From Nanobdellota archaeon (GTDB taxonomy: Archaea > Nanobdellota > Nanobdellia > Tiddalikarchaeales > Tiddalikarchaeaceae): 64,000 nt of DNA. The stretch is taken from NCBI GenBank assembly GCA_016931175.1, contig JAFGFH010000022.1:17527-81526 (forward strand). Reading direction: 5' to 3'. The position numbers and the translations under genes were made by a program. The notes under the pieces were generated by a model. The model did not search any database. It saw only the letters and a program-made list of their open reading frames with translations, and was not told where the DNA came from. Positions 10,958 through 57,860 of the stretch are shown here, piece by piece; the first letter of the stretch is position 1; the number at the start of each line of letters is the position of its first letter.

Positions 10958-11772
10958 TTCTTTTCACCCGTGAATAGTTTTTCCTCATTCATCAAGTTCA
11001 AGGCTTCAGATGTCCATACTGTTAATCTTCCAGGAACTCCGCCAGGAGCTAATATTGTAACGTTCAAGTTCTTTACAGGTATTGTTTCAACACCCTGCAA
11101 TCCCTTAGCTGCTTTCAGTAATGAACAGTCTTTTTCAACAACGAATAAAGGCCCTTTCTTAGTCTTGTATTTTCTTCCTCTCATCTTCCCCTTTCCTGCC
11201 CTTATCTTCTTCTCACTAACTCTTTCAAGCTCTTCTTTTAACCCAATCTTTTCTAATAATTTCTTAACATCATTCGTCTTTTTCAAGTCCTGAGCTTTTT
11301 CAATGACTAATGGAATACTAACGTTCTCAATAGAGTGGTTTCTTTCAATTACTAAATCCTTGTTAGTAGTTGCTGAAATAGCGCTTCTTATTGCGAGCAA
11401 TCTCTCTTTAGTATTAATCTTTTCTTCAAATATTACAGCTGTTTTTGGAGGATGAGCAATCCTACCCTTCCTCGTGTGAGGCGCTTTTTCTCCAACGAAG
11501 TTAAAATGAGTTCCTCTTCTGCTTATAATTTTTTTAGGAACCCTGCTTCTGCCAGCACCGTATACTCCCCTGTACTTTCTTCTCCTCTTTGACAACTCTG
11601 TAACCTTTCTCATTCCAGCCTCAGGGTCTGTTCCATGATGCTGGTAATTGTTTGAAATATTAGCATTGAATGCGCGGGTTATGATTATTGGCCTGTAAGC
11701 TTCGCTGAACTGTTTAGGCAAATCTACCTTGCCTGTCTTTTCCCCTTTTGCGTTAAAAACATCTGCTTTCAT
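10954..11772 (-). CDS. rpl4: 50S ribosomal protein L4 (uL4)
   Basis: 272 aa, archaeal L4/L1e-type. Confidence 0.93.
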   Translation of the reverse strand: MKADVFNAKGEKTGKVDLPKQFSEAYRPIIITRAFNANISNNYQHHGTDPEAGMRKVTELSKRRRKYRGVYGAGRSRVPKKIISRRGTHFNFVGEKAPHTRKGRIAHPPKTAVIFEEKINTKERLLAIRSAISATTNKDLVIERNHSIENVSIPLVIEKAQDLKKTNDVKKLLEKIGLKEELERVSEKKIRAGKGKMRGRKYKTKKGPLFVVEKDCSLLKAAKGLQGVETIPVKNLNVTILAPGGVPGRLTVWTSEALNLMNEEKLFTGEKK

Positions 11773-16870: not shown

Positions 16871-18566
16871 CGCTTTCAAGAGTTTCTGCTTTTACTGTTG
16901 TAACAACGTCTTTGCAGGCAGGCTTCTTCCTTGCATCATTCAACTCTTTCAAGTTGCTTATCTTCAAATCAGAGAAGCTTCCATTGCTCTTAAGCTTTGA
17001 GCGCACAACTTCCTTCTCAGGCTGTTTCAAGTCTTTAATTATGAACACTTCATCACAGAGCACCCACATCTCCCCGTTCTTGCTGCCGTACTTGAAGTGT
17101 ATCTTGCTCCTCTCCGTATCTTTTAATTCATAGATTTGGGCAAGGTTCTCCATCATATTAACGAAGCTTTTAGCCTCTTTCTCAATAGTGTAAGCTTCCT
17201 CAGTTGTAAGCAAGTCCCTCTTAAAGTCCATCTTTGCATTCTTTATCTTCTTGCTTATAAAGTAGTAATCAGCGCCAGTTATTAATCCAGTGTCTAATAG
17301 TTTCTCTTTCATTAATTCCACAGCGTCTTTAGTTGTGGCTTTAACTCCCATAGCTTTAAGTGTTTTAACAACTGCTTCCAAGCAGTTATTCTCTGACTCT
17401 TCTAATGACTTCTTTATATTGTCATTCCTTATGTCAGTGAATAATTTCTCAATCCTGTCCTGGAAATCATTCGCTTGTTTCATAACTTTAGCAAATTCTT
17501 CAGGACTAATCTCTTTTATCTTGCCGTACTCAACACCTTTTCTTAATTTAATTATGTCTTCCAAGTAATCAGCGTACTTCTCCTCAATAAGCTTCAACTC
17601 ATTAACGAAGTGCTTCTTGAAAACTTTTGGCGTGTTAATAGCGTCAGTCGGCGGCACGCCTATAAGCATTAGTGCAGCCTGCGCAGGGTTAAACATTGCA
17701 AGAAATACTCTCTCAATAACCATTTCCTTAATATTATTGTTAATGTCCTGGATTAGTAATCTTCCAGTCCTGTAGAACTGGTCTACTGCTTCAGGGCTTG
17801 GCCTAAGCTTTCCCATCTTAAGCAGTGTTCTCCATGGTATGAACATTCCAGTATCATATAATGGTATGCCGTCACGAACCATGCTGAAGATTACCGGATG
17901 AGTGTCTCTCAAATTCTGCCAGAAATCAGTTAACAAGTATACTTGAATATTAAACTCGAAACCTGTCTGAGCTGCCATTCCATGAATCATTCTTCTCAAG
18001 CGAGCTAATACTTCATGCCTGCTCATTTTCTTAACATCAGTATCGTCTATGACGAATGAGATGTCAACGTCGCTGTCCTCGTGCATTGTTCCCCTGCTCA
18101 CGCTTCCAACAAGTATCATAGACAAGATGTAGCGTTTAAGCTTCTGCAAGCACATGTTCCTTAACAGTTCTGCAGCAACAAGTCCTTTTATGAAACCTTT
18201 GTCATACATTATCTTGTTAGTCTTAGGATTAGATAATGCTCGGATAAGCTCGTACTTCTGGTCATAGCAGCTCTGCCATAAACCGCTGAGAGGCAGTATT
18301 CTTGCCTTCTTGCCTTTATAATTCTCCATTAACTTAACGGATTTTTCATCGATTAAGTCGTTAATAATAGCAATAATCTCTTCCTCAGTCTTTGGAATTG
18401 CAAGCTCTCCTTCTTTAGGTTCAGCGCCTTCCTCTTCCTCTTTCGTAAACTCGACCTTGCAAACTGATATTAAAGAATCCTTAAAAATATCTTTTAACTC
18501 TTTAACTAAAGGGTCCTCTTTCTTAGGAGCCTTAGAATCTTTCAATTTTTTTTCATCATCTGCCAA
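16827..18566 (-). CDS. Large nucleotidyltransferase-fold (Pol-beta superfamily) protein, function unknown
   Basis: 579 aa. Classic NTase motif hG[GS]x(n)DhDh (LVGSVSRGTMHEDSDVDISFVIDD) about 150 aa from the N-terminus, then a long helical region. Not the archaeal CCA-enzyme layout. Confidence 0.7.
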   Translation of the reverse strand: MADDEKKLKDSKAPKKEDPLVKELKDIFKDSLISVCKVEFTKEEEEGAEPKEGELAIPKTEEEIIAIINDLIDEKSVKLMENYKGKKARILPLSGLWQSCYDQKYELIRALSNPKTNKIMYDKGFIKGLVAAELLRNMCLQKLKRYILSMILVGSVSRGTMHEDSDVDISFVIDDTDVKKMSRHEVLARLRRMIHGMAAQTGFEFNIQVYLLTDFWQNLRDTHPVIFSMVRDGIPLYDTGMFIPWRTLLKMGKLRPSPEAVDQFYRTGRLLIQDINNNIKEMVIERVFLAMFNPAQAALMLIGVPPTDAINTPKVFKKHFVNELKLIEEKYADYLEDIIKLRKGVEYGKIKEISPEEFAKVMKQANDFQDRIEKLFTDIRNDNIKKSLEESENNCLEAVVKTLKAMGVKATTKDAVELMKEKLLDTGLITGADYYFISKKIKNAKMDFKRDLLTTEEAYTIEKEAKSFVNMMENLAQIYELKDTERSKIHFKYGSKNGEMWVLCDEVFIIKDLKQPEKEVVRSKLKSNGSFSDLKISNLKELNDARKKPACKDVVTTVKAETLESVKKYIGGDVEFVFA

Positions 18567-18607
18567 AAAAACATCACCTGTATACTAATTAATAATAATG
18601 ATAGGCA

Positions 18608-18641
18608 GAAATCTACTTATAAAGGTTTCTACTGAGCAGTA
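18608..18641 (-). promoter_or_regulatory. Putative promoter/operator upstream of the 16827 NTase gene: palindrome TACTGCTCAGTA + TATA-like CTTTATAAG
   Basis: Read on the minus strand as tcactactgctcagtagaaacctttataagtagattt, lying 40-75 nt upstream of the start codon. A closely similar element sits upstream of the 27465 gene. Confidence 0.45.
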
Positions 18642-18658
18642 GTGATAAAGAAAAACAA

Positions 18659-19114
18659 TCAACAAACTCTCTTATTTTTTAAGTAATAATTCTGGTGGTA
18701 ATCCTCTGCAGGGTAGAACTCGGAGGCTTTCTCTACCTGTGTAACTATCTTCTTGCCAATTCTTTTCTCTTCCCTCTCTAATGACTTAATTGCTTCATCT
18801 CTCTGCTCTTTTGTGTAGTAAAAGATTACTGAACGGTACTGTTCTCCAAAGTCTAATCCCTGCCTGTTCTTGGTTGTAGGATTATGAATCTTCCAAAACA
18901 ATTCTAATAGTTTTTTGTAGCTTACCTTCTTCTCATCATACTCTACGTAAGTCACTTCAGCATGCCCGGTATTCTCGTAGCATACTTGTTTGTAAGTAGG
19001 GTTCTTATTTTTGCCTCCCATGAAGCCGACAACAGTCTTAGTAACACCTTTAACATTGTCAAACGCTTCCTGAACGTGCCAGAAACAACCCGCGCCAAAC
19101 ACTGCTTTTCTCAT
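18659..19114 (-). CDS. msrA: Peptide methionine sulfoxide reductase MsrA
   Basis: Catalytic GCFWH motif (AVFGAGCFWHVQEAF) and conserved MsrA C-terminal region. Start set to ATG 19114 (MRKAVF...), because the longer ORF in the track would read through the upstream tRNA-Ser. Confidence 0.9.
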   Translation of the reverse strand: MRKAVFGAGCFWHVQEAFDNVKGVTKTVVGFMGGKNKNPTYKQVCYENTGHAEVTYVEYDEKKVSYKKLLELFWKIHNPTTKNRQGLDFGEQYRSVIFYYTKEQRDEAIKSLEREEKRIGKKIVTQVEKASEFYPAEDYHQNYYLKNKRVC

Positions 19115-19115
19115 A

Positions 19116-19199
19116 CGCTGGGGCTGAGATTTGAACTCAGGCCCACTTGCGTGGACAAGCTTTCCAGGCTTGCGCGTTAGACCACTCCGCCACCCCAGC
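19116..19199 (-). tRNA. tRNA-Ser (anticodon GGA), class II with long variable arm
   Basis: Reverse complement folds as a cloverleaf: acceptor GCTGGGG/CCCCAGC, anticodon stem CAAGC/GCTTG with loop CUGGAAA, long variable arm, T-arm CTGAG-TTCAAAT-CTCAG, discriminator G. No encoded CCA. Confidence 0.8.
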
Positions 19200-19222
19200 A
19201 ATATTATAGAATTGGAGGTTTA

Positions 19223-19885
19223 GTGTTTAAAAAAGTTTATAAGCGTGATATTTTTGCTTTCTTTATCATGAATGGTTTTGAAGTCTTAAGAACAGTCTAT
19301 GATGAATTAGGCAGGGTTAAACCAACTTTATTCAGGCAGCCTGCCAGGAATACTGTTTTACTCTACTCTGACTGGGAAGAGAAGGTGTCCGCAGTGGACG
19401 AGTATAAAGGGGCGAAGATGGTTAAAAACAGTAAAGGGGATAAGTTAATGCTAAGCCACGGGGTTAGAGTAAAAGTCTTTGACAGGGGAGGCTCGCACTT
19501 AAAAGAGGATGAAAGACTTGAAAGAATAATATTAATGGAGACGCGTTCATGGACAACAGAGTACGAGGAAGACTTCACCTCTTTCGTTAGAGGATGCAGG
19601 GAGTACACTAATACTGCAGTAATAATCTACGCAAATGCTGAATCCATCTCATGTTCTTACATATTCTCTGATTTCTTACTAGAGCATAAAGAACCAATAC
19701 TGGATGATAACGAGAGTATTAATGCAGGAAAGAGAAGTAATTTTATTGGAAACGTTATTAGCATAGAAGTTAAAGAAAATAGTGCGGATACTATAATTAA
19801 ATTCTTATTAAAATCAATAAGTGCTTATGTTAAAGATTATGACAGTTCTAAAGTCATGCAATGGGATTACGAACATTTCAACTAA
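19223..19885 (+). CDS. Hypothetical protein (220 aa)
   Basis: Clean ORF (GTG start in track). No recognisable domain. Confidence 0.45.
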   Translation: MFKKVYKRDIFAFFIMNGFEVLRTVYDELGRVKPTLFRQPARNTVLLYSDWEEKVSAVDEYKGAKMVKNSKGDKLMLSHGVRVKVFDRGGSHLKEDERLERIILMETRSWTTEYEEDFTSFVRGCREYTNTAVIIYANAESISCSYIFSDFLLEHKEPILDDNESINAGKRSNFIGNVISIEVKENSADTIIKFLLKSISAYVKDYDSSKVMQWDYEHFN

Positions 19886-19886
19886 A

Positions 19887-20618
19887 TTATTCAAGGCTTG
19901 TTTCAAAGACTTGGCTTAAGACTTCAATCGCTTCTGCAGGGATTCCATCTTTTAAGTAGAAGCTTGAACCCAATTCGTAAGCCATAACACCGTCATTAAT
20001 GCATTCAGGGTCAATGTATAAATCCCTAGTTTTAAGCAGAGAATGAGTGTCTAATATTAATCTTATTTGGCCAACGCAATGAGTGGCAGAGTTCACACAA
20101 CTAATTAACTCTTTCCCTTCCCTAAATAATTGAACGTAAGTGAAACCTTCAACTGCTCCCCAAACGCCGCCATTCTCAACACTCTTAATATTATCCTCAA
20201 CTATTTCATTATAATCTTTGTCTGAAGCGTTTAAATTTACAACGTGCATCAACCTCTTAGGAAGAAGTTCTTCTGGAACTGGAAGTAAAGCGTTCGAGAC
20301 ATGGTTTTCTTTGTCCTTTAATATCCTGAAACCGTAATCATAAGCTCTTTTCGCGAACTTAAAGAACCTATTGTCTTTAATGTCTTCACTCTGAGAACGG
20401 TAAGGATTCTGCCTGGCAGAGAACTCCAAGCCTTCAAGGTTCAAGAAACAATAATCATCATCAATACGAGTCCAGAACTCACTCTTTTCAACTGCTTTGC
20501 GCAAGCCGTACTTTAAGAAAGACCTGATAGTAAAACTGTTCTCCAAGTCATCTCCGTGATTAAAATCATCACATGGGTGCAGTAATTTAACTAAACTCAT
20601 AAATGTTTTATTAGACAA
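19887..20618 (-). CDS. Hypothetical protein (243 aa)
   Basis: Clean ORF convergent with the 19223 gene. No recognisable motif. Confidence 0.45.
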   Translation of the reverse strand: MSNKTFMSLVKLLHPCDDFNHGDDLENSFTIRSFLKYGLRKAVEKSEFWTRIDDDYCFLNLEGLEFSARQNPYRSQSEDIKDNRFFKFAKRAYDYGFRILKDKENHVSNALLPVPEELLPKRLMHVVNLNASDKDYNEIVEDNIKSVENGGVWGAVEGFTYVQLFREGKELISCVNSATHCVGQIRLILDTHSLLKTRDLYIDPECINDGVMAYELGSSFYLKDGIPAEAIEVLSQVFETSLE

Positions 20619-20884
20619 AATTGTTTTTTTAAATCTTTTCAGAAATAATATTTGCAGCAGTTAACAGTCGCTCGGGAATTCTTTCGCCGCTTGGCTTGTG
20701 AATATGCTTTTTAGGCAGGGATTCACCATCAATAACCACTGGAGGTTAACTGCTGCATTTTGCGTTGTTCGGTAAATGCTTTGACATGACGATTAATACT
20801 CTTATAATACCACCTCAAACCCCAGTATGAAAATATATATGAGCTGGTTGCTTATAAGTAGTTGTTCCGTTTTTACCTGAAAAA

Positions 20885-21592
20885 GTGGAAAATTTTACCA
20901 CTATATTATTGAAAGGTTTTAAAAAACAAAAAATTGTAAGGAATAGTATGGATTACGCAGAGTATTACGTTAGGAGGCAGCCTGAGAAGCCAGTATTTAA
21001 CATAGGAAGTGTTACGAAGTGGTTGATTATCATATGCGTTGCTAGTTTCGTGGCAATTTTTTTCATATCTGAAGATACTTTATTATACTATTTCACTTAT
21101 AACAGTGAAACTGTTTTGCAAAACCCTTGGACTTTAATTACTAACGTCTTCGTTCACGGCGACTTGTTCCACTTATTATTCAACTGTTTCGCGTTGTTCA
21201 TGTTCGGCTCACTTGTGGAATTAAGGCACGGCTCAAAGTTTACACTAGTATTATTCTTCTCAAGCGTTATACTCGCAAATATTGTGTTCGGTTTTTTTAA
21301 TCCCGGCATTTACGGGCTTGGAATCAGCGGGTACGTTTATGCTCTGATTGGTGCTGCAGTAATACTCGACCCTCAGGTTAGAGTCTTATTCCCTATTGGT
21401 TTTTTTTACACCACTGCTCCTGTCAGCATTGCCGGACCAATACTTTTCATAACTGAATTAGTTTTCAGTATTGGAAGCACTGACGGCGTCGGCCACGTCG
21501 CGCACGCTGCAGGATTCATAGCTGGAATATTAATAGGGTACGTTCAGAAGAAGAGGAGCCCGCCAGTAATAGAGAAGATTATCAGATATTAA
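20885..21592 (+). CDS. Rhomboid-family intramembrane serine protease
   Basis: Six-TM protein with catalytic GxSG (GISGYVYALIG) and a downstream His in a TM helix (HVAHAAGFIAGIL). Confidence 0.82.
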   Translation: MENFTTILLKGFKKQKIVRNSMDYAEYYVRRQPEKPVFNIGSVTKWLIIICVASFVAIFFISEDTLLYYFTYNSETVLQNPWTLITNVFVHGDLFHLLFNCFALFMFGSLVELRHGSKFTLVLFFSSVILANIVFGFFNPGIYGLGISGYVYALIGAAVILDPQVRVLFPIGFFYTTAPVSIAGPILFITELVFSIGSTDGVGHVAHAAGFIAGILIGYVQKKRSPPVIEKIIRY

Positions 21593-22100
21593 CACTTCCC
21601 TTTCTTAAAACTACTAATTTATTGTTTTCAAAAATAACTATTGTGCTTGGAGGGTTATGGTCCAACTCGTCAATGTCAATAACTTTGTTAACTGCTCTTA
21701 TTATACTCCTTGGTATGTCATCAATACTGTAAGGATTCTTGCCACCGCTAATGTTAGCGCTAGTGCTTATAATAGGCGCGTTTAACTGTTTTATTAACTT
21801 GTTAGGTATTGGATGAGGACTCCACCTGACGGCTACGTCTTGTTTTGACAACATATCAGGCACTGAAGCCTTCTTGGGTTGTATTATAGTTAAAGGTCCG
21901 GGCCAGTACTCTTCTGCCAATTTAAGAGCCTCAGGACTTACTTCTGCTATACTCTTCCACATCTCAATACTGTTAACTAATACTATTAACGGCTTTTCAG
22001 AATCCCTCTTCTTTAATTCATAGATTTTCTTGATTCCTGCTTCGTCAAAGGCGCTGCAGCCCAGTCCATAACAGGTTTCAGTAGGGTAGATAAACAGCAT
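21582..22100 (-). CDS. tsaC: L-threonylcarbamoyladenylate synthase, YrdC/TsaC-type (t6A biosynthesis)
   Basis: 172 aa YrdC-domain protein (YPTETCYGLGCSAFD...STSANISGG). Confidence 0.8.
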   Translation of the reverse strand: MLFIYPTETCYGLGCSAFDEAGIKKIYELKKRDSEKPLIVLVNSIEMWKSIAEVSPEALKLAEEYWPGPLTIIQPKKASVPDMLSKQDVAVRWSPHPIPNKLIKQLNAPIISTSANISGGKNPYSIDDIPRSIIRAVNKVIDIDELDHNPPSTIVIFENNKLVVLRKGSVNI

Positions 22101-22133
22101 AGTAAAAAAATATTTTCAGAAGTATTATAAAGA

Positions 22134-22442
22134 TTATTCTCTTATCTCCATTTCCACGTTAACTCCCTTAGGTATTGGTATTCTCATTATTAATCTTAAT
22201 GCCATCTCGTTAACTCCCAAGTCTATCACGCGTTTAGAGATTCTCATATGCCAAGTCTCGTAAGACTCTCTCCCTGCACCGCAAGGGCACTTCCTAACAG
22301 GCACTTTCAAGTCCTGCCTAGGCAAAGGTATTGGTCCTTTCATCTTAACCTTCATCCTATCTGCTATGTCTTTTATCTGACCGCAGATCTCATCCAGCTG
22401 CACAGGGTCAGTACTTGATAGTTTTACTCTAACACTTGACAT
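22134..22442 (-). CDS. rps10: 30S ribosomal protein S10 (uS10)
   Basis: 102 aa uS10 (IRVKLSSTD...KGPIPLP). Conserved position downstream of EF-1alpha. Confidence 0.94.
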   Translation of the reverse strand: MSSVRVKLSSTDPVQLDEICGQIKDIADRMKVKMKGPIPLPRQDLKVPVRKCPCGAGRESYETWHMRISKRVIDLGVNEMALRLIMRIPIPKGVNVEMEIRE

Positions 22443-22529
22443 TGTAATCTCTAAATAAAAAAGAGCGGTTTAAAAACGTTTCTGTTAAAATACTAATTAA
22501 AAAAATAAAGAAAGTGGTGAGAAGCAGTT

Positions 22530-23804
22530 TTATGCTTTCTCAACCTTGGTACAGACTCCTGCACCTACAGTCATTCCCATATCCCTTATAGCGAAAGTAG
22601 CCATTTGAGGGATTGTGTCTTTCTGTTCCATAACCATTGGCCTGCTAGGTTCGAAGACAACGATTGCTGCATCTCCTCTCTTAATAAAGTCCGGCTTCTC
22701 TTCCTTTACAGCACCAGTTCTTGGGTCAAGCTTTGCCTGTATCTCTACGATTTTACAAGCTACTTGAGCAGTTCCTGCGTGCAGTACTGGAGTATAACCG
22801 ACTGTTATTACAGTAGGGTGCTGCAGTACCATAATCTGCGCCTTGAACTTTTTCGCAACTGTTGGCGGGTTATCTGCTGGGCCAAGAACGCTTCCGCGCC
22901 TTATATCCCCCTTTCCGATTCCACGAACGTTGAATCCAATGTTATCACCTGGCTCAGCTTCCTGAACCGATTCGTGATGCATTTCTATAGTCTTTAGTTC
23001 TCCGCCAACATTCTCTGGCATGAAAACTACTTTGCTTCCAACCTTCATTACACCAGTCTCTACCCTGCCTACTGGAACTGTTCCAATACCAGTTATTGTG
23101 TAAACGTCCTGAACTGGAACTCTCAAAGGCAAGTTAGTTGGCTTCTCTGGAGGACTGAACGAGTCAATCTGCTCTAAAAGAGTTGGGCCTTTGTACCAAG
23201 GAGTCTTAGGTCCTTTAGCCTTAACATTAGTAGCATCTGCGTCAACAGCGCTTGTTGGTATAAAGTTGATATCATCAGCTTTGTAACCAACGTTAGCCAG
23301 TAATTTCTTCAAATCCTCAACTACTGCTTTGTATTTAGCTTCGTCGTAGTTGATAGTATCTATTTTGTTTATAGCAACTGCTAATTGTTTTACTCCTTGA
23401 GTTTTTAACAAGAAGACGTGTTCTGTAGTCTGTGGCTGAACACCTTCACCAGCAGCTACTATAAGCATAGCAGCGTCTGCCTGACTTGCACCAGTAATCA
23501 TGTTCTTAATAAAGTCCTTGTGTCCTGGAGCGTCGATAAGTGTTACTTCATACTTTGGAGTCTCGAATTTCTTGTGAGCTAAGTCAATAGTAACTCCTCT
23601 CTTTCTCTCTTCTGGAGAAGCGTCCAAGGCATAAGCGTACTCCCAAGTAGACTTACCAAGTTCTGAAGCTAACTTCTTGAACTTGTCTAACTCTTGGGTG
23701 CTAACAACACCAGTTTCGAACAACATTCTTCCCATTAAAGTTGATTTACCGTGGTCAACGTGACCGACGAAAACCAAGTTTAAATGTGGTTTTTGTTTAG
23801 CCAT
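22530..23804 (-). CDS. tuf: Translation elongation factor EF-1alpha (aEF1A)
   Basis: 424 aa. G1 [10 protein letters not shown]3 DAPGH, G4 NKID. Archaeal EF-1alpha length and domain order. Confidence 0.97.
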
Positions 23805-23907
23805 TTTTTCATTTCACCTATATTTAATATAGATAAATCTGAATTTAGTGTTTTTAAACATTGCTATTTTATTGGATTAAACATGTTTTAACGAGATTTT
23901 AAGCATT

Positions 23908-24451
23908 TCAGACAAGCCCAATACTTGCAAGCAAGTATAGTATTACTATTATTGCAAGAGTTGCTGACAACATTCGAAGTATGCTTTTAATAATACTCTG
24001 CCGGCCAATCCTTGCAATCAGAACACCAAGCAGTGAGACTAAAACTACTGCTAATGAAAAGCTTGCAAAGTAAGACCAAGGAATGGGAAGCAGGAAGAAA
24101 GGTATTATCAAAGCAATCATGGAAAGGAAAGGAGACAATCCGTCAACCAAGCCGATTATTAAAGAGGTTCTCATGTTCTCTTTAACAACCCTGCTAGTCC
24201 TCTTCAAACCTTTTTCTAAAACGTCAAACTTGCGCTCAGCACGTTCTGTAAGGTAAGCTCCCCAGAAGCCTGAAACTCCCATGGCAATTCCTGAACCAAG
24301 ACAGGATAATACTATTACTTAAACGTTTGAGACTCCTCCAATCATTAAGGCAATAAGGATACCAAGAACGGTTAATACCCCGTCAAAACTGTTCATAATA
24401 AAATAACGCCTTATAATCTCGTCCTTGAACAAACCCTTGAAATCCTTCATT
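23908..24451 (-). pseudogene. CCC1/VIT1-like (TIGR00267-like) small membrane protein gene interrupted by an in-frame TAA at 24321..24319
   Basis: Upstream 43-codon ORF (MKDFKGLFKDEIIRRYFIMNSFDGVLTVLGIL...GGVSNV) and downstream 124-codon ORF (MGVSGFWGAYL...) are in the same frame, separated only by TAA. The combined ~167 aa resembles archaeal CCC1-related membrane proteins (N-x-DG-x-x-T-x-x-G motif). Confidence 0.4.
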
Positions 24452-29812: not shown

Positions 29813-30403
29813 TTACCTGCTAGATACTGCTTGTCTCTCTGTCTCTGTCTTCTTTCCTACTGCGAATGATTTCGTGTCATTATCTGCGCTTTGTATTATC
29901 ATTGCTGCAAGCGCTTGAGGAAATGTTGTTTTCTTGTTAGCGCAGTTCTGGTAAGCTCCTTGAGTCATCCACCTGAGTGCTAAGTCTATTCTCCTCTGCG
30001 GAGCAACATCAACTGCTTTAGGGTGCTTGATGCCTCCGTATTCAAGGCTTATTACTTCACTGCACGGGCTCGCGTTTTGAATAGCGTCAACGAGTACCTG
30101 CAATGGGTTCTTTTTAGTCTTGTCTTCTATGATTTTGAAGACTTCCTGAATATTCTTGTACTGAGTCATGTACTTGCCTGTGTTTCTCCCGCTCGTTCTC
30201 CAATGCTTCTTGCCCTTGTGCCCTGTTACGCTCATTTTAAGCATTAATCTCTCAACAATGTGGGCTTTGCTCTTCCAGAACTTCTTCTTCTCATTCCTGC
30301 CCTGACTCTTTGGAATAATGATTGGTTTAATATTAATGTAATTAGTTAATCCCGGGTCTGATACTACCACGCTGCTAGTGTCATACTTGTTGAATAGTTT
30401 CAT
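29813..30403 (-). CDS. rps7: 30S ribosomal protein S7 (uS7)
   Basis: 196 aa uS7 (LVDAIQNASPCSEV...AVDVAPQRR). Confidence 0.94.
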   Translation of the reverse strand: MKLFNKYDTSSVVVSDPGLTNYINIKPIIIPKSQGRNEKKKFWKSKAHIVERLMLKMSVTGHKGKKHWRTSGRNTGKYMTQYKNIQEVFKIIEDKTKKNPLQVLVDAIQNASPCSEVISLEYGGIKHPKAVDVAPQRRIDLALRWMTQGAYQNCANKKTTFPQALAAMIIQSADNDTKSFAVGKKTETERQAVSSR

Positions 30404-50780: not shown

Positions 50781-51383
50781 TTATTTTCTGCACTTTGCAT
50801 AAAGAGTTAATCCAAAAGGCAGCAAAAACCCTAAACTTATTAATTTGTTTTCAAAGGAGAGTATTAAATAAAATACTTTGTCTAAAAATTTTGGGAATAT
50901 TGACATGTCATCCGGTTTTTTATTATCTGGTTTTAATAATCTGAATAATATTATTAAAGGTGATAAAAACATGTTCCAGTACCCGAATTTTTCTATCCTA
51001 AAATTTTTAGTAAGAACATCATAAAGTCCATCACGAGTGTATCTTCTCTTATGTTCAAGCGCACTATCATGGCTGCTGTAAATAACAGGGTGTGCTGGAA
51101 CAGTCAATAAGAGTGTTCCTTTCTTTTTTAAAACCCTGCATACCTCTTTTATAACCTTATCATCTTTTTCAGTGTGTTCAAGAACATCAAAGAGTATAAC
51201 AATGTCAAAATAATTGCTGGGGTAAGAGATTTTCTCCGCATCACAAAATTTCTTTTCATAATAATAATCCTTTGGTATTAATTTTAAGACCTCTTTGTTT
51301 ATATCCGTGGCGTAAACTCTGCCATATTTCTTAAGCATTAATAAATCTCCTCCAGTTCCGACGCCTAAATCTAAAATCTTCAA
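50781..51383 (-). CDS. Class I SAM-dependent methyltransferase
   Basis: Motif I LDLGVGTGGD, acidic motif FDIVILFDVLEH, motif III LKKKGTLLLTVP. Appears to use a TTG start. Confidence 0.8.
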   Translation of the reverse strand: MKILDLGVGTGGDLLMLKKYGRVYATDINKEVLKLIPKDYYYEKKFCDAEKISYPSNYFDIVILFDVLEHTEKDDKVIKEVCRVLKKKGTLLLTVPAHPVIYSSHDSALEHKRRYTRDGLYDVLTKNFRIEKFGYWNMFLSPLIILFRLLKPDNKKPDDMSIFPKFLDKVFYLILSFENKLISLGFLLPFGLTLYAKCRK

Positions 51384-51543
51384 ATCTTTTACCTTCTCAG
51401 GAGATATTTGAAGGAGTTATGGTTTCTCATACCTATAGAGTTATCCTTTACAATAACTTCAGTTCTGGCATTCTGGAACGACCCGGGCATAGTTGAAATA
51501 GCAAACATAATCTTTTACAGATTCATTTAAAAAAAGAGTTAAT

Positions 51544-51987
51544 TTATTTTTTAAGTAAGTCTTTCATTAATCCTATTTCATATTCTTGCGCTTGAATTAT
51601 TGCTTGCGATAAATTTATTACTTCAGGGTCAAAGAGTTCAGCATTCTCACTTGTAAGTATTGCAGATGAATGGTGTGATATCATTGCAGCCATGTACTGG
51701 TCATCTGATATAAAAGTTTGATTTCTCAAAAAATACAGTGAAAATATAAAAACAATAATGCTTGAGAGTATGATAATATTATTTAGTTTCTTATCTTCAT
51801 ACATTTTTTCCATTACTAACATCATTGTTATCGCCATTGGAGAAACCATTAATAAAGTCATGTAAACCCTTGTTAAACTAAAATAAACATGACTAATATC
51901 TGCTACATTCAAAAACATAACAATATACATTATAACAAAAGATACAAGCAAATTAACTCCTAATCTTACATAATTCTGATTTTTCAC
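51544..51987 (-). CDS. Hypothetical membrane protein (147 aa, 3 TM)
   Basis: Clean ORF immediately left of the first cassette-boundary repeat. Confidence 0.5.
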   Translation of the reverse strand: MKNQNYVRLGVNLLVSFVIMYIVMFLNVADISHVYFSLTRVYMTLLMVSPMAITMMLVMEKMYEDKKLNNIIILSSIIVFIFSLYFLRNQTFISDDQYMAAMISHHSSAILTSENAELFDPEVINLSQAIIQAQEYEIGLMKDLLKK

Positions 51988-52032
51988 TAATTAATAATTA
52001 CTTTAAAAGTTTATATAACTTTTCTAAAAATA

Positions 52033-52098
52033 AAAAGACGCGCCCTGACTAAAAACAGCACTTAATGTCCAGTTTACGCAATGAAATGGAAAATGTAT
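52033..52098. repeat. Cassette-boundary repeat R1: ~60-nt element beginning with tRNA-Asp 3'-end core (gccctgact)
   Basis: aaaagacgcgccctgactAAaaacagcacttaatgtccagtttacgcaatgaaatggaaaa is nearly identical to the element at 54454-54519. The core matches the 3' end of tRNA-Asp at 57747-57759. Confidence 0.85.
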
Positions 52099-52123
52099 TA
52101 ATATATTATAACATTAATTATTT

Positions 52124-53035
52124 ATGTATTTTAAACAGAAGTTTGAGCCTAAAAAAGGAGTTATTCATGGTGCTGGCCAGGAGGGAACCCCTTTTAATTA
52201 CCCTGTTGATTTTAAGGATTACTGGGATAGTGTTGGTGAAAATAAGCCTCTGCTTTTTATGACGTATATCCAGCTCAAGTGGATTAATAAGAAATGGTTT
52301 GAGCTTACTAAAAAACAAGTTAAATATTTTCCAAATATTATTTTACAGATTGGTTTATCCATTAGTGATACTCATTCAGGAGAACCAGAAAAACATTATG
52401 AACAAGATGTTTTATCTGGGAAATTTGATAAGAATATTCAAGAGTTTTGTCAGGAGGTTAAGAAATTAAAAAGTCCTGTTTTTGTTAGATTAGGTTATGA
52501 GTTTAATGGTTTATCTTGGTATGGTTATCAACCCAATTCTTTTGTTAAAGCTTGGAGATACGTAATTGATAAGGTTAAAAAAGATAATGTTAATAATGTT
52601 GCTTGGGTGTGGCATTATTCTCCTGAAGGTGAAAAGAATTACATGGACTATTATCCGGGTGATGATTATGTTAATTGGTGGGGAACTACTTTATTTTTTA
52701 TGAGAGAGATAGAAAAAAGTAAAAAGTTTTTGAAGGATGCTGAGAATCACAAAAAACCTGTTATGATTTGTGAATCTTCAGCTGTTAATGTAACCACTCT
52801 TAAAGGTGAAGATAGTTGGCGGGAATGGTTTAAACCTTATTTTAATTATATTAAAACTAATCCAATAATTAAAGCTTTTTGTTATATTAATGGAAATTGG
52901 GCAGAAAAAGAAAAAATCTGGAAGGAATGGGGGGAATGCAGAATATCAAAAAACAAAACAGTAATGAGTAAATATAAAAAGGAATTAGAAAATAAAATCT
53001 ACATCCATAATAAAGACTATAAAAAAATTAAATAA
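52124..53035 (+). CDS. Glycoside hydrolase, family 26-like (beta-mannanase-type fold)
   Basis: 303 aa. GH26-like motifs: VFVRLGYEFNG (acid/base Glu region), WVWHYSP...YYPGDDYVNWWGTTLF, and PVMICESSA (nucleophile Glu region). Confidence 0.6.
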   Translation: MYFKQKFEPKKGVIHGAGQEGTPFNYPVDFKDYWDSVGENKPLLFMTYIQLKWINKKWFELTKKQVKYFPNIILQIGLSISDTHSGEPEKHYEQDVLSGKFDKNIQEFCQEVKKLKSPVFVRLGYEFNGLSWYGYQPNSFVKAWRYVIDKVKKDNVNNVAWVWHYSPEGEKNYMDYYPGDDYVNWWGTTLFFMREIEKSKKFLKDAENHKKPVMICESSAVNVTTLKGEDSWREWFKPYFNYIKTNPIIKAFCYINGNWAEKEKIWKEWGECRISKNKTVMSKYKKELENKIYIHNKDYKKIK

Positions 53036-53048
53036 ATAATAAGTTTAT

Positions 53049-53058
53049 CGCCCTGACT
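53049..53058. repeat. Cassette-boundary repeat R2 (core cgccctgact only)
   Basis: 10-nt copy of the tRNA-Asp 3'-end core lying between the convergent stops of the 52124 and 53079 genes. Confidence 0.6.
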
Positions 53059-53078
53059 CTTCTTTACTGTTTTGTAAA

Positions 53079-54404
53079 TTAAAAACGCTGTTCCACAAAG
53101 TTATCAAATATTTTTGTAACCTCATCAAAGGTAACAGGTCTTGCTATTAAAAAAACTGGTTTCTTATACGAACCATCATACTCTGTTAAAGGAATTAATG
53201 TTTTCGCTCTTAACGCTTCGCTTTCTTCAAATTGTTTTTTGGATAAGATAAAATTTGTTTTAAATGCGTTTTCTGTGTAATCTTCATATGGTTTATTATC
53301 AATAACAAAAATGTTGTCTGATGAATTTGGATGTATTTGCACTAATATTTTATCATCCTCGCTTAAACCTATTTGACATAAGGTCATTCCAGGAATTTCT
53401 AAATATTCTTTTCTATCTTTAGATTCATCAACGATTCCTTGACCACAATATATAAAACTATACCTACTTAAAAACAATCCTCTACTTTGAGTAATTGCAT
53501 TTTTATCAAAACCCTTTAGTTTGGAGCAATCACAATTAACTTCTCTGAATTTCTTGATTTTTGATGCATCTGCCCAAGCGTATAATTTTCCAAATTTTTC
53601 TAAATAAGGTGTTTTTTCTGGTAAAGTAATTTTTTGGTCTTGGTTAATTGGGGTTCTTAAAATTTTTTCCAAAAATTCATTTTTCATCCAATCAATTGCT
53701 GAATTTTTAATAGTATTCCATGATAATTGATGAGGTATTCCTGCCATGTCCAAGAATTCTGTTAATTTGTGTGGATTTTTAATTATTTGAGAGTAAAAAA
53801 TGAAACTTTTAAATCTCTCTCTTGGGTCTTTACTCTCTTTGTCTAAAAATCCGAGTTTATCAAAAATCGGCTCTAATTTTGTGTCATAGTCTCCCACACA
53901 ATCTTTATACATCCAATGCAAATCATCCCTATAAGAATCCCCTTTGTAACCTCTTCCAGCATATCTAACAGCACTGTTTGTAAACGTGAATCCGTCTTTT
54001 TTAACAAAGATTCCGCTGTCATCGTTATATAATTTTATTTCCAAGTCTAAGGGCTTAATATTAATTTCGGAAGGATTTGCAACATCCCTTATAAATTTAT
54101 TCCAATCTTTGCCTGTTTGTCTGCAATTCCATAAGTAAAAATCATTTGATTGAATTTTAAAGATATAATTAAAAATTCCTTGACTTATTGTAACTTCAAT
54201 ATTGCCCAATCCGGGTATTAAAATATTATCTTTAACAAAATCGTCTGGAGAATGCTTATAAGCATCTAATCTTCGTGGAAGACGCTTGCTTATTTCTAAA
54301 CATATATTATTTGATACTTCATCAATATCATAAGCTCTAAAACTTTCAGAACCTAACTTATCTTTATTCTCTTCTGATACAATTGAATGTGAAATATTAT
54401 TCAT
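53079..54404 (-). CDS. Hypothetical protein (441 aa), cassette-encoded
   Basis: Clean, long ORF. No motif recognised. Asn/Lys/Ile-rich. Confidence 0.5.
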   Translation of the reverse strand: MNNISHSIVSEENKDKLGSESFRAYDIDEVSNNICLEISKRLPRRLDAYKHSPDDFVKDNILIPGLGNIEVTISQGIFNYIFKIQSNDFYLWNCRQTGKDWNKFIRDVANPSEINIKPLDLEIKLYNDDSGIFVKKDGFTFTNSAVRYAGRGYKGDSYRDDLHWMYKDCVGDYDTKLEPIFDKLGFLDKESKDPRERFKSFIFYSQIIKNPHKLTEFLDMAGIPHQLSWNTIKNSAIDWMKNEFLEKILRTPINQDQKITLPEKTPYLEKFGKLYAWADASKIKKFREVNCDCSKLKGFDKNAITQSRGLFLSRYSFIYCGQGIVDESKDRKEYLEIPGMTLCQIGLSEDDKILVQIHPNSSDNIFVIDNKPYEDYTENAFKTNFILSKKQFEESEALRAKTLIPLTEYDGSYKKPVFLIARPVTFDEVTKIFDNFVEQRF

Positions 54405-54453
54405 TAAACACTCTATTAGAAAAATCTATTTAAAAACTTTACTAAATATAAAG

Positions 54454-54519
54454 AAAAGACGCGCCCTGACTGGAAACAGCACTTAATGTCCAGTTTACGC
54501 AATGAAATGGAAAAGTATT
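54454..54519. repeat. Cassette-boundary repeat R3: ~60-nt element with tRNA-Asp 3'-end core (gccctgactgg)
   Basis: aaaagacgcgccctgactGGaaacagcacttaatgtccagtttacgcaatgaaatggaaaa is a near-identical copy of R1. Confidence 0.85.
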
Positions 54520-54545
54520 TTATAACTTATAATTATTGTTAAAAT

Positions 54546-54890
54546 ATGAAATGTAGTCATAGTTTTTATTCTAAAAATGGAGAAGCTGTTTGTAGTAAAT
54601 GTGGAGAAAATAGAGGTAAAGTTCCTGAGTTTCAAGAATTAGACTATAATGAAATAGGAGAATTTGCTGTTCGTATAAGAAAATTAAGTGATGAAGAAAT
54701 TGATGAAGTTTGGTATCTTTGCGGTTTTATTATTAGTGATCATCGAAGTGATTTGAAAGCTCTCCGAGATTATGACATTAAACAAATAAGAAAAAGTGTT
54801 CAAGGAGCTTATGGCGTATTAGAAATATTATTACAAGAAACTTTTGTTGAAGACTTTAGAAAAAACTTGAAAAAAGTAGAAAATAAGTAA
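54546..54890 (+). CDS. Small zinc-ribbon protein (114 aa), cassette-encoded
   Basis: N-terminal C-x-H...C-x2-C (CSHSFYSKNGEAVCSKCG) then an acidic helical region. Confidence 0.45.
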   Translation: MKCSHSFYSKNGEAVCSKCGENRGKVPEFQELDYNEIGEFAVRIRKLSDEEIDEVWYLCGFIISDHRSDLKALRDYDIKQIRKSVQGAYGVLEILLQETFVEDFRKNLKKVENK

Positions 54891-54896
54891 AAGGCT

Positions 54897-54908
54897 GCCC
54901 TGACTGGG
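54897..54908. repeat. Cassette-boundary repeat R4 (gccctgactggg)
   Basis: 12-nt exact copy of the tRNA-Asp 3' end between the convergent stops of the 54546 and 55015 genes. Confidence 0.7.
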
Positions 54909-55014
54909 CACTATGAAAAATTCACAACGCCCTACATTTGAGCGTAGTTTTTTAATGCTATACTAATATTTATACAGAGATGGGATTTATAGTTTTTGTT
55001 TAGGTGACCACAAA

Positions 55015-55944
55015 TTATCTTTTCTTCTTTTTCGTGGACACCTTTTTCAATGTCTTTTTGTATTGTTTTATTAAGAATTTCATTGTTGGTTTTAAATCCT
55101 GATTTTTAGAATATTGTTGCAGGACAAAATAGTACTCTTTTCTGTCTTCCAAGATTATGTTCAATGGAGGATAATTATTCTTAAGCAAGATATAGTTCAA
55201 TAATAATCTTCCAACCCTTCCATTACCATCTTGAAAAGGGTGAATGTGTTCAAATTGGTTATGAATTATTGCTGCCAAAGCCAAAGGTTTAAACTTAGTT
55301 TTATTCTTTTTATACCAACCCACTAAATCTTTCAAATAACTCATTAATTTACGTTTAGGAACTCCTTTATGAACTATTCCTCCCTTTCCATCTGTGATAA
55401 CAACTTCAACATTTCTATATTCTCCTGCAAATGATTTAGTGCCTTTAAAACAAATCTTATGAATTTTTTTAATAAATTCAAGTGATATATCTTGTTTACT
55501 TTTTTTTATAAATTCAACGGCTTTTGCAACATTTTTTGTTTCAATCTCTCCATCATCTTGTGGAACTTTTTTATTTTCTAATAAGTCTTTAACTTCACCT
55601 AATTCAACAGTTGAACCTTCAATAGCATTAGTGTTATAAACAAACTCTTCAGTGAACCTCTTCCAGTCAATCTTATCTAAATGAATAATTTTAATCTCTT
55701 TTTCATAATCATTAATCTTATTAATCTGATTCTTAGTTAAACTAAAATCAAAAACATCAGTTTTTAACTCATCCAAAACTTGCTTTAATTCTTCCTTAGC
55801 TTTATTTTTTGCAGATTCTAACCCATTCTTTGTTAGATTTTTTCCAAGATATTTTCTAATCTTCTGGACTTTGCCTTGCTCCCTATATGAATATACAAGA
55901 TAATATTTTACATCCTTACCTGCTTTTCTTTTCTCAACATACAT
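55015..55944 (-). CDS. Fic/Doc-family protein (putative AMPylase-type toxin/regulator)
   Basis: 309 aa with canonical Fic motif HPFxDGNGRxxR (HPFQDGNGRVGRLL). Confidence 0.85.
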   Translation of the reverse strand: MYVEKRKAGKDVKYYLVYSYREQGKVQKIRKYLGKNLTKNGLESAKNKAKEELKQVLDELKTDVFDFSLTKNQINKINDYEKEIKIIHLDKIDWKRFTEEFVYNTNAIEGSTVELGEVKDLLENKKVPQDDGEIETKNVAKAVEFIKKSKQDISLEFIKKIHKICFKGTKSFAGEYRNVEVVITDGKGGIVHKGVPKRKLMSYLKDLVGWYKKNKTKFKPLALAAIIHNQFEHIHPFQDGNGRVGRLLLNYILLKNNYPPLNIILEDRKEYYFVLQQYSKNQDLKPTMKFLIKQYKKTLKKVSTKKKKR

Positions 55945-55953
55945 ACAACATAG

Positions 55954-55997
55954 TAGGTGCCCACATTTTATAAACTTATCTTAAAGTGTGGTCACCT
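55954..55997. promoter_or_regulatory. Putative Fic promoter: imperfect 12-bp inverted repeat (taggtgcccaca ... tgtggtcaccta) bracketing a TATA-like box (ttttataaactt)
   Basis: Dyad arms at 55954-55965 and 55987-55997 flank ttttataaactt about 10-45 nt upstream of the Fic start. A third half-site copy (taggtgaccacaa, 55001-55013) lies just past the Fic stop. Confidence 0.45.
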
Positions 55998-56016
55998 ATA
56001 AATAAAAATTCAGAAG

Positions 56017-56030
56017 CGCCCTGACTGGGA
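56017..56030. repeat. Cassette-boundary repeat R5 (cgccctgactggga)
   Basis: 14-nt exact copy of the tRNA-Asp 3' end between the Fic start and the 56076 gene stop. Confidence 0.75.
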
Positions 56031-56075
56031 AGAGCAAACTCTGTTCTGATTAAGATTAATTTTATATTATAATAA

Positions 56076-57575
56076 TTACCAATCTATACACTCACTTGTA
56101 TCTTCAAGTGTCCAAGAATCAAATGTTTGTTCAAAGAATTGTTTATTCATTATTTCTTCATTTGTTTTAAATATTTTATATGCTTCATAAACATCAAGAT
56201 ATTCATTAAATGTTCCTTCATAAGAGTATTCTTGTCTAAAATAAATTGGTATTCCATTTTCATCTAAACATATATTATATGTTAAACTATTGAAAATTTC
56301 AACATCCCGGAAGTATTGATAATATAGTGTTGGAGGAGTTATTTCAAAACTAAACATTTGACAAATATTTCCATTTATATTTGAATCTTCTGATGTAAAA
56401 CTAATTACATAATCATTGGTTATAAAATAATTTAATTCTTCATATTTTGATAATACACTATCTGAACCATAATCATCTGGTTCATTAAAATTCAATATAG
56501 GACATGAACAATAACTACAAGTTGATTGAATACCATCATATAATAAATTACCTTCTTTTTTACTTAACATTGCTTCATTTTCAGCATCTAATGAACACTC
56601 ATTATTATTACAACCATAACTATCCCATTCTAATCCTGATTTGAAATCTCCATTATTTAAATTTAGGTAATTTTCAATAATAGAATAATATAAGTCAATA
56701 TCATTTACATCATATAAATTTGTTGTTGTTGAATTATGCTGTATTTCATAATATAAATAATTATCAGATATTGTAATAAAATTATCATAAAAAGTAGTAA
56801 AATCCGAACCTACTGTTATTGTTGGAGTAGTTTCTGTAACAACTTCAGTAAAATCACTACAACTGTAAGTATTTTCTAAAAACCATGAACACACAGTTTT
56901 TGTTGTTTCAATATTAGAATCTACACATATAACTTGTTTTCCTAAATCATTATGTGTTAAAAGTAAACTATAAGTGCTTGTTAATTCTTCATAATCATAA
57001 TCTTCATTAATAAATCCCCACCAATCATTACATTCAAATGCTTGAATAAAATCTTGACAATATGAACTTACTGGACTTGTTGGACAAGTATCAAATTTAT
57101 ATCTAAGTAATTGAATTAATATATCATCTGATGAAATATTATATTCTAATAATTGTGTATATGAATTATTATAACTGATATTGTAAAGTGGGACGGGTCC
57201 TAACATTGTTATATTTTCAATAACTGGATTAGGTATTTGTTGTGTTATTAAATCTGAAGTTTGAAAAATATTACTTAAACCAATAGTGTTGAATAATATA
57301 AATCCTGAAACTCCTATAACTATAATTATCCCCATTATTATAAAGGGTAAATAGTTTGGTTTTTTCTTTTCTTCTTTCTTTCCAATATTTCTAATTTCAT
57401 CAAGTGAAATTTCTTCAGATTTAGTTTCTTTTTGTTCTGGTTTAGATTCTTCTGTTTTTGGTTCAGCAACGGGTTTTGGTTGAATCGGCAAATATTCTTT
57501 GCAATCAAAACAATAATGTCTATCATATTGTTCTATATAACTTGCTTCTTTACCGCATTTAGGACATACAACCAT
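56076..57575 (-). CDS. Zinc-ribbon / single-TM / large Asn-Tyr-Ser-Cys-rich ectodomain protein (hypothetical)
   Basis: 499 aa. N-terminal CPKCG...CFDC ribbon, Lys/Glu-rich linker, TM helix (LPFIIMGIIIVIGVSGFILF), then a ~400-aa Cys-containing domain. Confidence 0.55.
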   Translation of the reverse strand: MVVCPKCGKEASYIEQYDRHYCFDCKEYLPIQPKPVAEPKTEESKPEQKETKSEEISLDEIRNIGKKEEKKKPNYLPFIIMGIIIVIGVSGFILFNTIGLSNIFQTSDLITQQIPNPVIENITMLGPVPLYNISYNNSYTQLLEYNISSDDILIQLLRYKFDTCPTSPVSSYCQDFIQAFECNDWWGFINEDYDYEELTSTYSLLLTHNDLGKQVICVDSNIETTKTVCSWFLENTYSCSDFTEVVTETTPTITVGSDFTTFYDNFITISDNYLYYEIQHNSTTTNLYDVNDIDLYYSIIENYLNLNNGDFKSGLEWDSYGCNNNECSLDAENEAMLSKKEGNLLYDGIQSTCSYCSCPILNFNEPDDYGSDSVLSKYEELNYFITNDYVISFTSEDSNINGNICQMFSFEITPPTLYYQYFRDVEIFNSLTYNICLDENGIPIYFRQEYSYEGTFNEYLDVYEAYKIFKTNEEIMNKQFFEQTFDSWTLEDTSECIDW

Positions 57576-57746
57576 TAAATAATTGATTAACTAATGATTT
57601 TTAATGTTTTTCTTAATAAATCCCTATCAAAATTATCTTTTTGTTTTTAAAACATAAAGTTAAAAAGTAATACATTTGTCATACTCATATAGAGAAGCAA
57701 AGTGAGGGGTTACACAACAACGGCATAACCCGAACACTCTGAACCA

Positions 57747-57818
57747 CGCCCTGACTGGGATTCGAACCCAGGTTATCGGCGTGACAGACCAATGTCCTAA
57801 CCACTAGACTATCAGGGC
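57747..57818 (-). tRNA. tRNA-Asp (anticodon GTC)
   Basis: Reverse complement GCCCTGATAGTCTAGTGGTTAGGACATTGGTCTGTCACGCCGATAACCTGGGTTCGAATCCCAGTCAGGGCG folds as a cloverleaf. Anticodon loop CUGUCAC, T-arm CTGGG-TTCGAAT-CCCAG, discriminator G. Its 3' 12-14 nt are the repeated cassette-boundary core. Confidence 0.85.
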
Positions 57819-57860
57819 AATATTAGAATTATGGGATTATAGTGTTTTTAAAGTTTTTTC

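Follow-up and report, generated by a model that had tools for sequence, protein, structure and literature searches.

Copies of a tRNA-Asp 3' end bound single-gene modules in a Nanoarchaeota genome: probable remnants of serial site-specific integration

How a tRNA-Asp(GTC) gene came to be followed by a row of short copies of its own 3' end, each lying between intact genes, is the question raised by a contig from the metagenome-assembled genome of a tiny, symbiotic Nanobdellota archaeon (GenBank assembly GCA_016931175.1, contig JAFGFH010000022.1). The DNA analysed, here called the window, is a stretch of 64,000 nucleotides (positions 17,527 to 81,526 of the contig), and coordinates are those of the window unless a related locus is named. 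The island is the part of the window, next to the tRNA gene, in which the copies and five genes alternate. The initial annotation interpreted the copies as the footprint of site-specific integration at a tRNA gene, and compared the island to an integron-like cassette array serviced in trans. The array of tRNA-end repeats is a real and statistically solid feature of this DNA. We regard it as probable, with some reserve, that elements integrated site-specifically, one after another, at a tRNA-Asp hot spot of this Nanoarchaeota genome, and that the island consists of their accreted remnants, which lack integrases.

The tRNA-Asp gene is intact and lies on the minus strand, so that its 3' end faces lower coordinates. 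This end anchors the array (J0), and five further copies, J1 to J5 in order of distance from the gene, follow on the same side (Table 1). Their lengths are those of the maximal matches to tRNA-Asp. The five positions given by the initial annotation were right, and its length of 12-14 nt fits only three of the copies, J4 and J5 being 10 nt long. The 9-mer GCCCTGACT, common to all copies, was found seven times in the window against 0.25 expected, and none of 100 shuffled windows reached seven. Six of these seven lie within 5.7 kb (52042-57756), on the strand of the tRNA-Asp 3' end and on its 3' side only. The seventh is isolated at 30299, and the motif is otherwise missing from the remaining 58 kb. 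As a control, the 3' ends of the tRNA-Ser and tRNA-Lys genes of the window were searched and had no comparable copies. Every copy sits in an intergenic gap with a complete open reading frame (ORF) on either side, as had been described, and an Rfam scan of the island for split tRNA or tRNA-half genes gave the tRNA-Asp gene as its sole match. A candidate sixth junction at 51479-51503, matching at 16 of 25 positions, was discarded as not significant, this level being met about nine other times in the window.

The DNA between the copies is foreign in composition, which had at first been judged by eye. Windowed GC in the island drops to 0.24-0.31, and the GC content at third codon positions (GC3) of the five island genes is 0.09-0.24, compared to 0.34-0.51 for neighbouring and other genes. 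Low GC3 is also seen left of J5, in a DUF305/CopM-like gene (Table 1) and in a methyltransferase gene (0.29), which together occupy 50781-51987. Because of this common bias the island probably extends past its reported left boundary, with the DUF305 gene as a sixth module and perhaps with the methyltransferase gene as well. No significant tRNA-end copy was found at the far left edge beyond these two genes. The upstream region of the DUF305 gene is homologous to that of the 441-aa gene of the island.

No recombinase was found in the window, in agreement with the initial annotation. Forty ORFs were scanned with Pfam, namely those of the island and next to it and the larger ones without assignment, but not most short ORFs of the ribosomal-protein operon or the large polymerase ORFs, and neither PF00589 nor any other recombinase domain was detected. 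NCBIfam and PHROGs scans of the island gave no recombinase, and tblastn of the window with the integrases of related genomes, one family being used as query, gave no match. Split integrase halves of the SSV type were likewise not found at the cores by Pfam or by tblastn with the same single family. The gaps adjoining the cores measure 43-170 nt and are therefore too short to conceal integrase fragments. A candidate for an integrase from the same genome, obtained by cluster look-up, was rejected, as the Nanoarchaeota integrase examined belongs to a different project.

Related contigs were identified through homologues of a conserved 472-aa protein (MBN1923991.1, JW791_04510), and include Candidatus Tiddalikarchaeum anstoanum. 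The gene order Band7-TatD-472aa-tRNA-Asp is kept in related Nanoarchaeia, and the 3' side of tRNA-Asp is different in each relative examined. In seven related loci the gene content 3' of tRNA-Asp varies, and none of them encodes a homologue of an island protein. Two loci, L003 and L008, carry a tyrosine integrase gene (PF00589) of about 390 codons with a C-terminal zinc ribbon, on the same strand as tRNA-Asp. It starts 67 nt (L003; 68 nt with the start codon at 11569-11571) and 65 nt (L008) past the end of the tRNA gene as called by ARAGORN. Loci L004 and L006 have no integrase and instead hold gene-less copies of the tRNA-Asp end (20 nt at +94, 29 nt at +49). In L009, L010 and L040 neither an integrase nor a tRNA-end scar follows the tRNA. 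Integrases or scars after the same tRNA-Asp in four relatives support the reading of the repeats as a footprint of site-specific integration. The distance between tRNA-Asp and the MscS-ICMT gene pair is 7 kb in L004 and 15 kb in the window, and this difference marks 42.6-57.7 kb as a plastic zone.

In the close relatives L004 and L006, the same short segments, bounded by tRNA-end copies, were observed in different order (L004 12589-12701, L006 12589-12780). The segments include G-rich hairpins and a second tRNA-like 3' end (GGTTCTGAATCTCGTCCCCTGCA) and have no Rfam match.

The integrase of L003 and L008 belongs to a family with 3131 homologues at E<=1e-30, distributed over many archaeal phyla. 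Members also stand directly after tRNA-Ser (L012, L013 and L035-L039). In all loci examined the integrase gene begins no more than about 155 nt past the 3' end of a tRNA-Asp or tRNA-Ser gene, and mostly 60-67 nt past it. The closest named relatives of the L003/L008 integrase are those of archaeal pleolipovirus-like proviruses of Archaeoglobi (37% identity, 98% coverage, E 4e-65).

Clear homology of the flanking sequences was found in two of the five junctions, J3 and J5, with J1 as a marginal third. The alignment of J3 and J5 stretches beyond the 79-nt direct repeat of Table 1, a duplication absent from the initial annotation, to about 130 nt, almost the entire length of both divergent intergenic regions, and the flanks score z of about 17 on the right and about 4 on the left. 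Some of the likeness on the left may reflect a generic promoter consensus. Within the alignment, 52054-52094 and 54475-54515 are identical at 41 of 41 positions, and the duplicated sequence around this block has diverged, with indels. The block is located upstream of TATA-like boxes of the GH26 gene and the 114-aa gene, and may be an arm site that binds a protein or may stem from recent gene conversion. J1 resembles J3 and J5 weakly (31 of 47 positions against the J3 47-mer, with a background maximum of 26), and its flanks alone show marginal similarity to them, with z of about 2 on one side. Beyond the core, J2 and J4 have nothing in common with the other junctions. Single-strand folding of the five junction regions, compared with shuffles and not with a dedicated attC model, gave z from -1.84 to +0.63 and no common fold. 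The J3 and J5 repeats bracket an integrase-less two-gene unit of 2.4 kb (the GH26 gene, J4 and the 441-aa gene). The long repeat indicates that this unit at least came in, or underwent its last recombination, between a pair of junction sites that are nearly identical.

The island is regarded as accreted remnants of integrated elements because the repeats stand beside an intact tRNA gene, in its orientation and on its 3' side only, and bound foreign DNA, and because related genomes show tRNA-targeting integrases that use the tRNA-Asp site. We infer the following about which enzyme acted, in what order the events took place and how the integrase was lost. The 10-14-nt repeats would be att-core (attachment-site core) junctions, produced as site-specific recombination took place several times at the very 3' end of the tRNA-Asp gene. 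It was likely carried out by a tRNA-targeting tyrosine integrase of the family of about 390 aa with a C-terminal zinc ribbon, which is seen at the same tRNA in relatives. Every integration would have restored tRNA-Asp and displaced earlier insertions outward. The integrase-bearing parts would have been lost afterwards by deletion in a streamlined genome or, alternatively, when the core at the tRNA recombined with one further downstream and so removed the module nearest the tRNA. Captured cargo genes of low GC, with core scars between them, would then be left behind, the unit of GH26 and 441-aa genes being the latest arrival or the last to be recombined.

Several observations weigh against this explanation. 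The island is tightly packed, with five intact genes, the short gaps noted above and no debris. Random decay should leave gene fragments and junctions within genes, so the island is tidier than predicted. The window yielded neither an integrase gene nor a fragment or pseudogene of one. The integrase-bearing relatives have no distal tRNA-end copy of at least 9 nt within 9-11 kb; the att core of the zinc-ribbon family is therefore undefined, and its link to the 10-14-nt cores is indirect. No cargo gene of the island was found in an element of any relative. The present trailer of tRNA-Asp is unlike the arms at J1, J3 and J5, which a simple tandem model with elements of the same family does not predict. 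Distal att matches of 8 nt in relatives, for example at position 11361 of L014, were rejected as being at chance level. When the junction arms of the window were compared with the spacers between tRNA and integrase in relatives, the tRNA itself was the only match; a ACGCCCTAC motif and a 15-nt match to L013 were at chance level.

Possible, though a good deal less probable than accretion and loss, is that the modules are still mobile. They would be integrase-less mini-elements, either cis-mobilizable or similar to a CALIN (a cluster of attC sites without an integron integrase), each carrying one or two genes and an att site mimicking the 3' end of tRNA-Asp. They would be captured, excised and reshuffled by an integrase encoded elsewhere, in the genome, in a virus or plasmid, or in the host of the symbiont. 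In favour of this, all junctions are intergenic, all genes are intact and there is no pseudogene debris. The 79-130 nt common to J3 and J5, with the fully identical block amid diverged sequence, have the appearance of a conserved recombination site, which J1 matches in part. Segments bounded by tRNA-Asp ends were reordered between L004 and L006, a tRNA-targeting integrase family is present in the lineage, and cis-mobilization has been suggested for tandem islands at ssrA that lack an integrase (PMC3146451). On the other side, no integrase has been shown for this genome, J2 and J4 are alike in the core only, and the junctions have no conserved structure.

Searches elsewhere also speak against mobile modules. 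The junction-family pattern GCGCCCTGRCTRRRAASAGCA had 13 matches in JGI metagenomes, all attributable to chance and in contigs of 46-70% GC. In IMG/VR the 20-mer of the tRNA 3' end had no match, the J3/J5 18-mer had a single one, a chance match in a high-GC contig, and the J3/J5 right-arm sequence had none. Protein scans of IMG/VR with the integrase (as sequence and as alignment) and with the 441-aa and 499-aa proteins gave no relatives. No island gene was found in another setting bounded by the same core. The absence of debris, the undefined core of the integrase family and the unlikeness of the tRNA trailer to the arms at J1, J3 and J5 keep this explanation alive, and the miniature single-gene layout leaves a modest chance, small in absolute terms, of a cassette system mobile in trans.

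A stronger form of the same idea is improbable. The locus would then be a DPANN gene-capture platform, integron-like in its working and differently built, at which a trans-supplied integrase inserts, excises and reshuffles circles of one or two genes downstream of tRNA-Asp, using an att site of about 45-130 nt centred on the mimic of the tRNA-Asp 3' end. On such a platform the integrase module could be another excisable cassette adjoining the tRNA.

It is very improbable that the repeats were kept for a role other than recombination, as a promoter or terminator module spread by duplication or homologous recombination with only a secondary likeness to the tRNA. J2 contains a 5-bp hairpin and then a T-tract on the minus strand downstream of Fic, a T-rich tract follows each of J1, J3 and J5 in the tRNA sense, J3 and J5 are whole duplicated divergent-promoter regions, and part of their left flank is like a promoter in L004. 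This role is unlikely because the position of the core relative to genes is inconsistent (upstream or downstream, and between convergent, divergent or tandem pairs) and because terminator-like matches, including 54896-54910, are at chance level (2 found, 1.7 expected); moreover, the motif is missing from the other 58 kb save for one isolated 9-mer, and every copy matches the tRNA in the orientation and on the side predicted by integration.

The island genes, from GH26 to the 499-aa gene, are oriented +, -, +, -, -, and each has an AT-rich upstream gap of its own. The glycosidase call of the initial annotation was confirmed by a full-length match (residues 3-296, E 2.9e-53) of the 303-aa protein to AlXyn26A in the Protein Data Bank (PDB), a match obtained although Pfam gave none. 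The 441-aa protein, formerly listed as unknown, is still without a family, since family and PDB searches gave no match. Its sole homologue among 5.8 billion proteins is a Woesearchaeota protein of 647 aa (35% identity), longer by about 205 N-terminal residues, and an AlphaFold model from the alignment of these two sequences was unusable, with a predicted local distance difference test (pLDDT) score of 31. The 114-aa protein had only a weak PHROG match, and its Cys/His motif may bind zinc. The Fic assignment was upheld by the Pfam model and by models of defence candidates, the 309-aa protein being similar to SoFic and PDC-S04. The 499-aa protein has a zinc ribbon at its N-terminus and a hydrophobic stretch resembling a membrane anchor; its C-terminal part is rich in Cys and has only few homologues among 1.84 billion representatives. 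Comparison of the island proteins with phage records gave no match, and nothing viral was seen in the island.

A perfect 11-nt inverted repeat, AGGTGACCACA (55002-55012 and 55987-55997), encloses the Fic gene, and a third near-copy lies upstream at 55955-55965. The two upstream copies form a palindrome with 21-nt spacing in the Fic promoter region, which looks like an operator or terminal inverted repeats.

Table 1. Coordinates of the tRNA-Asp gene, its 3'-end copies, the associated repeats and genes, and integrase genes in related loci
Feature	Coordinates	Strand	Details
tRNA-Asp(GTC), intact, full length	57746..57819	-	ARAGORN; Rfam RF00005, 67.7 bits
J0, array anchor, tRNA-Asp 3' end	57747-57760		CGCCCTGACTGGGA on the plus strand
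J1, 14-nt tRNA-end copy	56017..56030	-	TCCCAGTCAGGGCG in tRNA sense; between Fic start and 499-aa gene stop
J2, 12-nt copy	54897..54908	-	CCCAGTCAGGGC; between convergent 114-aa and Fic genes
J3, 12-nt copy	54462..54473	-	CCAGTCAGGGCG; divergent promoter gap of 441-aa and 114-aa genes
J4, 10-nt copy	53049..53058	-	AGTCAGGGCG; 43-nt gap between convergent GH26 and 441-aa genes
J5, 10-nt copy	52041..52050	-	AGTCAGGGCG; divergent gap of DUF305 and GH26 genes
Long direct repeat, left copy, contains J5	52033..52111	+	79 nt, 89% identity; extends over about 51995-52123
Long direct repeat, right copy, contains J3	54454..54532	+	79 nt, 89% identity with left copy
DUF305/CopM-like gene	51544..51987	-	PF03713, NF049983; GC3 0.24
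GH26 glycoside hydrolase, beta-1,3-xylanase-like, 303 aa, intact	52124..53035	+	phmmer against PDB 7xjr AlXyn26A; GC3 0.24
441-aa protein, function unknown	53079..54404	-	GC3 0.21
114-aa protein, N-terminal Cys/His motif, function unknown	54546..54890	+	translation; GC3 0.11
Fic/DOC family protein, 309 aa	55015..55944	-	PF02661 E 4e-22; PADLOC SoFic E 1e-37
499-aa protein, module nearest tRNA-Asp	56076..57575	-	GC3 0.09
Integrase gene, L003	11568-12737		
Integrase gene, L008	11581-12756		
Integrase gene, L013	10001-11158		
Integrase gene, L035	1389-2558		
Integrase gene, L039	10001-11158		

Further observations were made on elements of the zinc-ribbon integrase family. In L039 (9856-18999) an integrase element encoding an N6/N4 methyltransferase and a ResIII helicase is held by a tRNA-Ser whose neighbourhood (rhomboid, EF-1 alpha) matches 19-24 kb of the window. 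In the window itself (18600-24000) no copy of the tRNA-Ser 3' end was found downstream of tRNA-Ser, and there was no sign of insertion. A small ORF follows the integrase in L003, L014, L036 (67 aa) and L039 (48 aa); in L003 and L014 its product looks, by eye, like a membrane protein. Similar cargo domains occur after tRNA-Asp in the Tiddalikarchaeum locus L008 (12840-16102) and after tRNA-Ser in L035 (2760-6480) and L036, namely a Vsr endonuclease, an unknown protein, a C5 DNA methylase and a TFIIB-like gene. The shared set points to small elements of one family, equipped with restriction-modification genes, that have moved from one tRNA target to another. An identical 389-aa integrase (P0016) was observed at tRNA-Ser(TGA) in two different upstream neighbourhoods (L035/L036 and L037/L038), and several of the L035-L038 contigs end at, or start just upstream of, the pair of tRNA and integrase, a pattern that fits population-level variation at these sites.

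The mobile elements and gene flux of DPANN archaea are poorly charted. The locus shows tRNA-Asp as a recurrent insertion site in one lineage of Nanoarchaeia, and ties this site to zinc-ribbon tyrosine integrases adjoining tRNA genes, a family that is very large and has been little described. It further indicates that accessory genes, here a glycosidase, a Fic defence candidate and surface proteins, can be fixed in a streamlined genome as very small units. If the units were mobile in trans, they would represent a second route to cassette arrays, independent of integrons. On present evidence the locus exemplifies a known process in compact form, with an unusual, miniature single-gene layout.

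Integrons are defined by the integrase IntI, an attI site and hairpin-forming attC sites between cassettes that are mostly co-oriented and generally without promoters of their own; IntI is a tyrosine recombinase with an IntI-specific extra domain. The island resembles integrons and CALINs in being an array of short, mostly single-gene units with a recurring recombination-type site between them; in both, the integrase may be missing from the array and service in trans is conceivable. It differs from them in that its junctions have no attC palindromes, that neither IntI nor attI is present, and that what recurs between its units is the copied 3' end of a tRNA. Unlike integron cassettes, the island genes do not all face the same way, and each is preceded by an upstream region of its own. 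The absence of IntI alone is not decisive, since CALINs lack it too. In function the array may be somewhat similar to a CALIN, without being one, and the integron-like cassette array of the initial annotation was not borne out. The same holds for its novelty in archaea, as integrons are already on record for Archaea, among them the DPANN group to which Nanoarchaeota belong (PMC9668308), and both archaeal and bacterial elements have been described as forming arrays by using one integration site repeatedly (PMC6563490, PMC3146451).

Tandem elements at tRNA genes provide another comparison. The island has their intact tRNA at one end, co-oriented repeats of the tRNA 3' part on the 3' side only, foreign composition and variable content at the orthologous site; an integrase for each element was not found in the island or window. 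As in cis-mobilizable elements, the modules are flanked by core copies, and the 2.4-kb unit by a repeat of 79-130 nt, with no recombinase found. In streptococci, cis-mobilizable elements undergo accretion with integrative elements. She et al. reportedly described captured elements in Sulfolobus in 2001. Capture of the Sulfolobus type leaves split integrase halves, unlike the present locus, in which no such fragments were found.

In Dehalococcoides, tandem islands are bounded by 20-bp repeats of the ssrA end, and some of them have been suggested to be integrase-less and cis-mobilizable (PMC3146451). Common to these and the present island are an intact small-RNA gene at one end, co-oriented 3'-end repeats downstream of it, low GC, strain-specific content and conservation of junction flanks beyond the repeat. 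The present island differs by its location at an archaeal tRNA, by repeats of 10-14 nt instead of 20 nt, and by units of 0.4-1.7 kb with single genes instead of several, none of which keeps an integration module. Furthermore, the candidate enzyme is a tyrosine recombinase and not a serine recombinase.

Among archaeal elements, Geoglobus acetivorans pleomorphic virus 1 (BK065156.1) has an integrase related to that of L003 and L008 as its first gene; the virus has structural and Rep genes, whereas the island has nothing viral. The cryptic integrated elements of Thaumarchaeota (PMC6563490) and the islands of Thermococcales (PMC9897764) are similar in that tRNA-targeted integration duplicates the 3' part of the tRNA. 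In archaea an att site may be only 8 bp long, and repeated use of a single site gives rise to arrays (PMC6563490); integration is known to leave tRNA fragments behind (PMC9897764). The elements described span 2.6-98 kb and by definition carry an integrase, and the modules of the island are much smaller. Shared with the tRNA-integrated elements of archaea are the short att, the re-use of the site and a loss of the recombination function by which cargo becomes fixed. The locus is thus most likely a known kind of genomic island, the outcome of archaeal 'gene capture', and not a new integron-like system.

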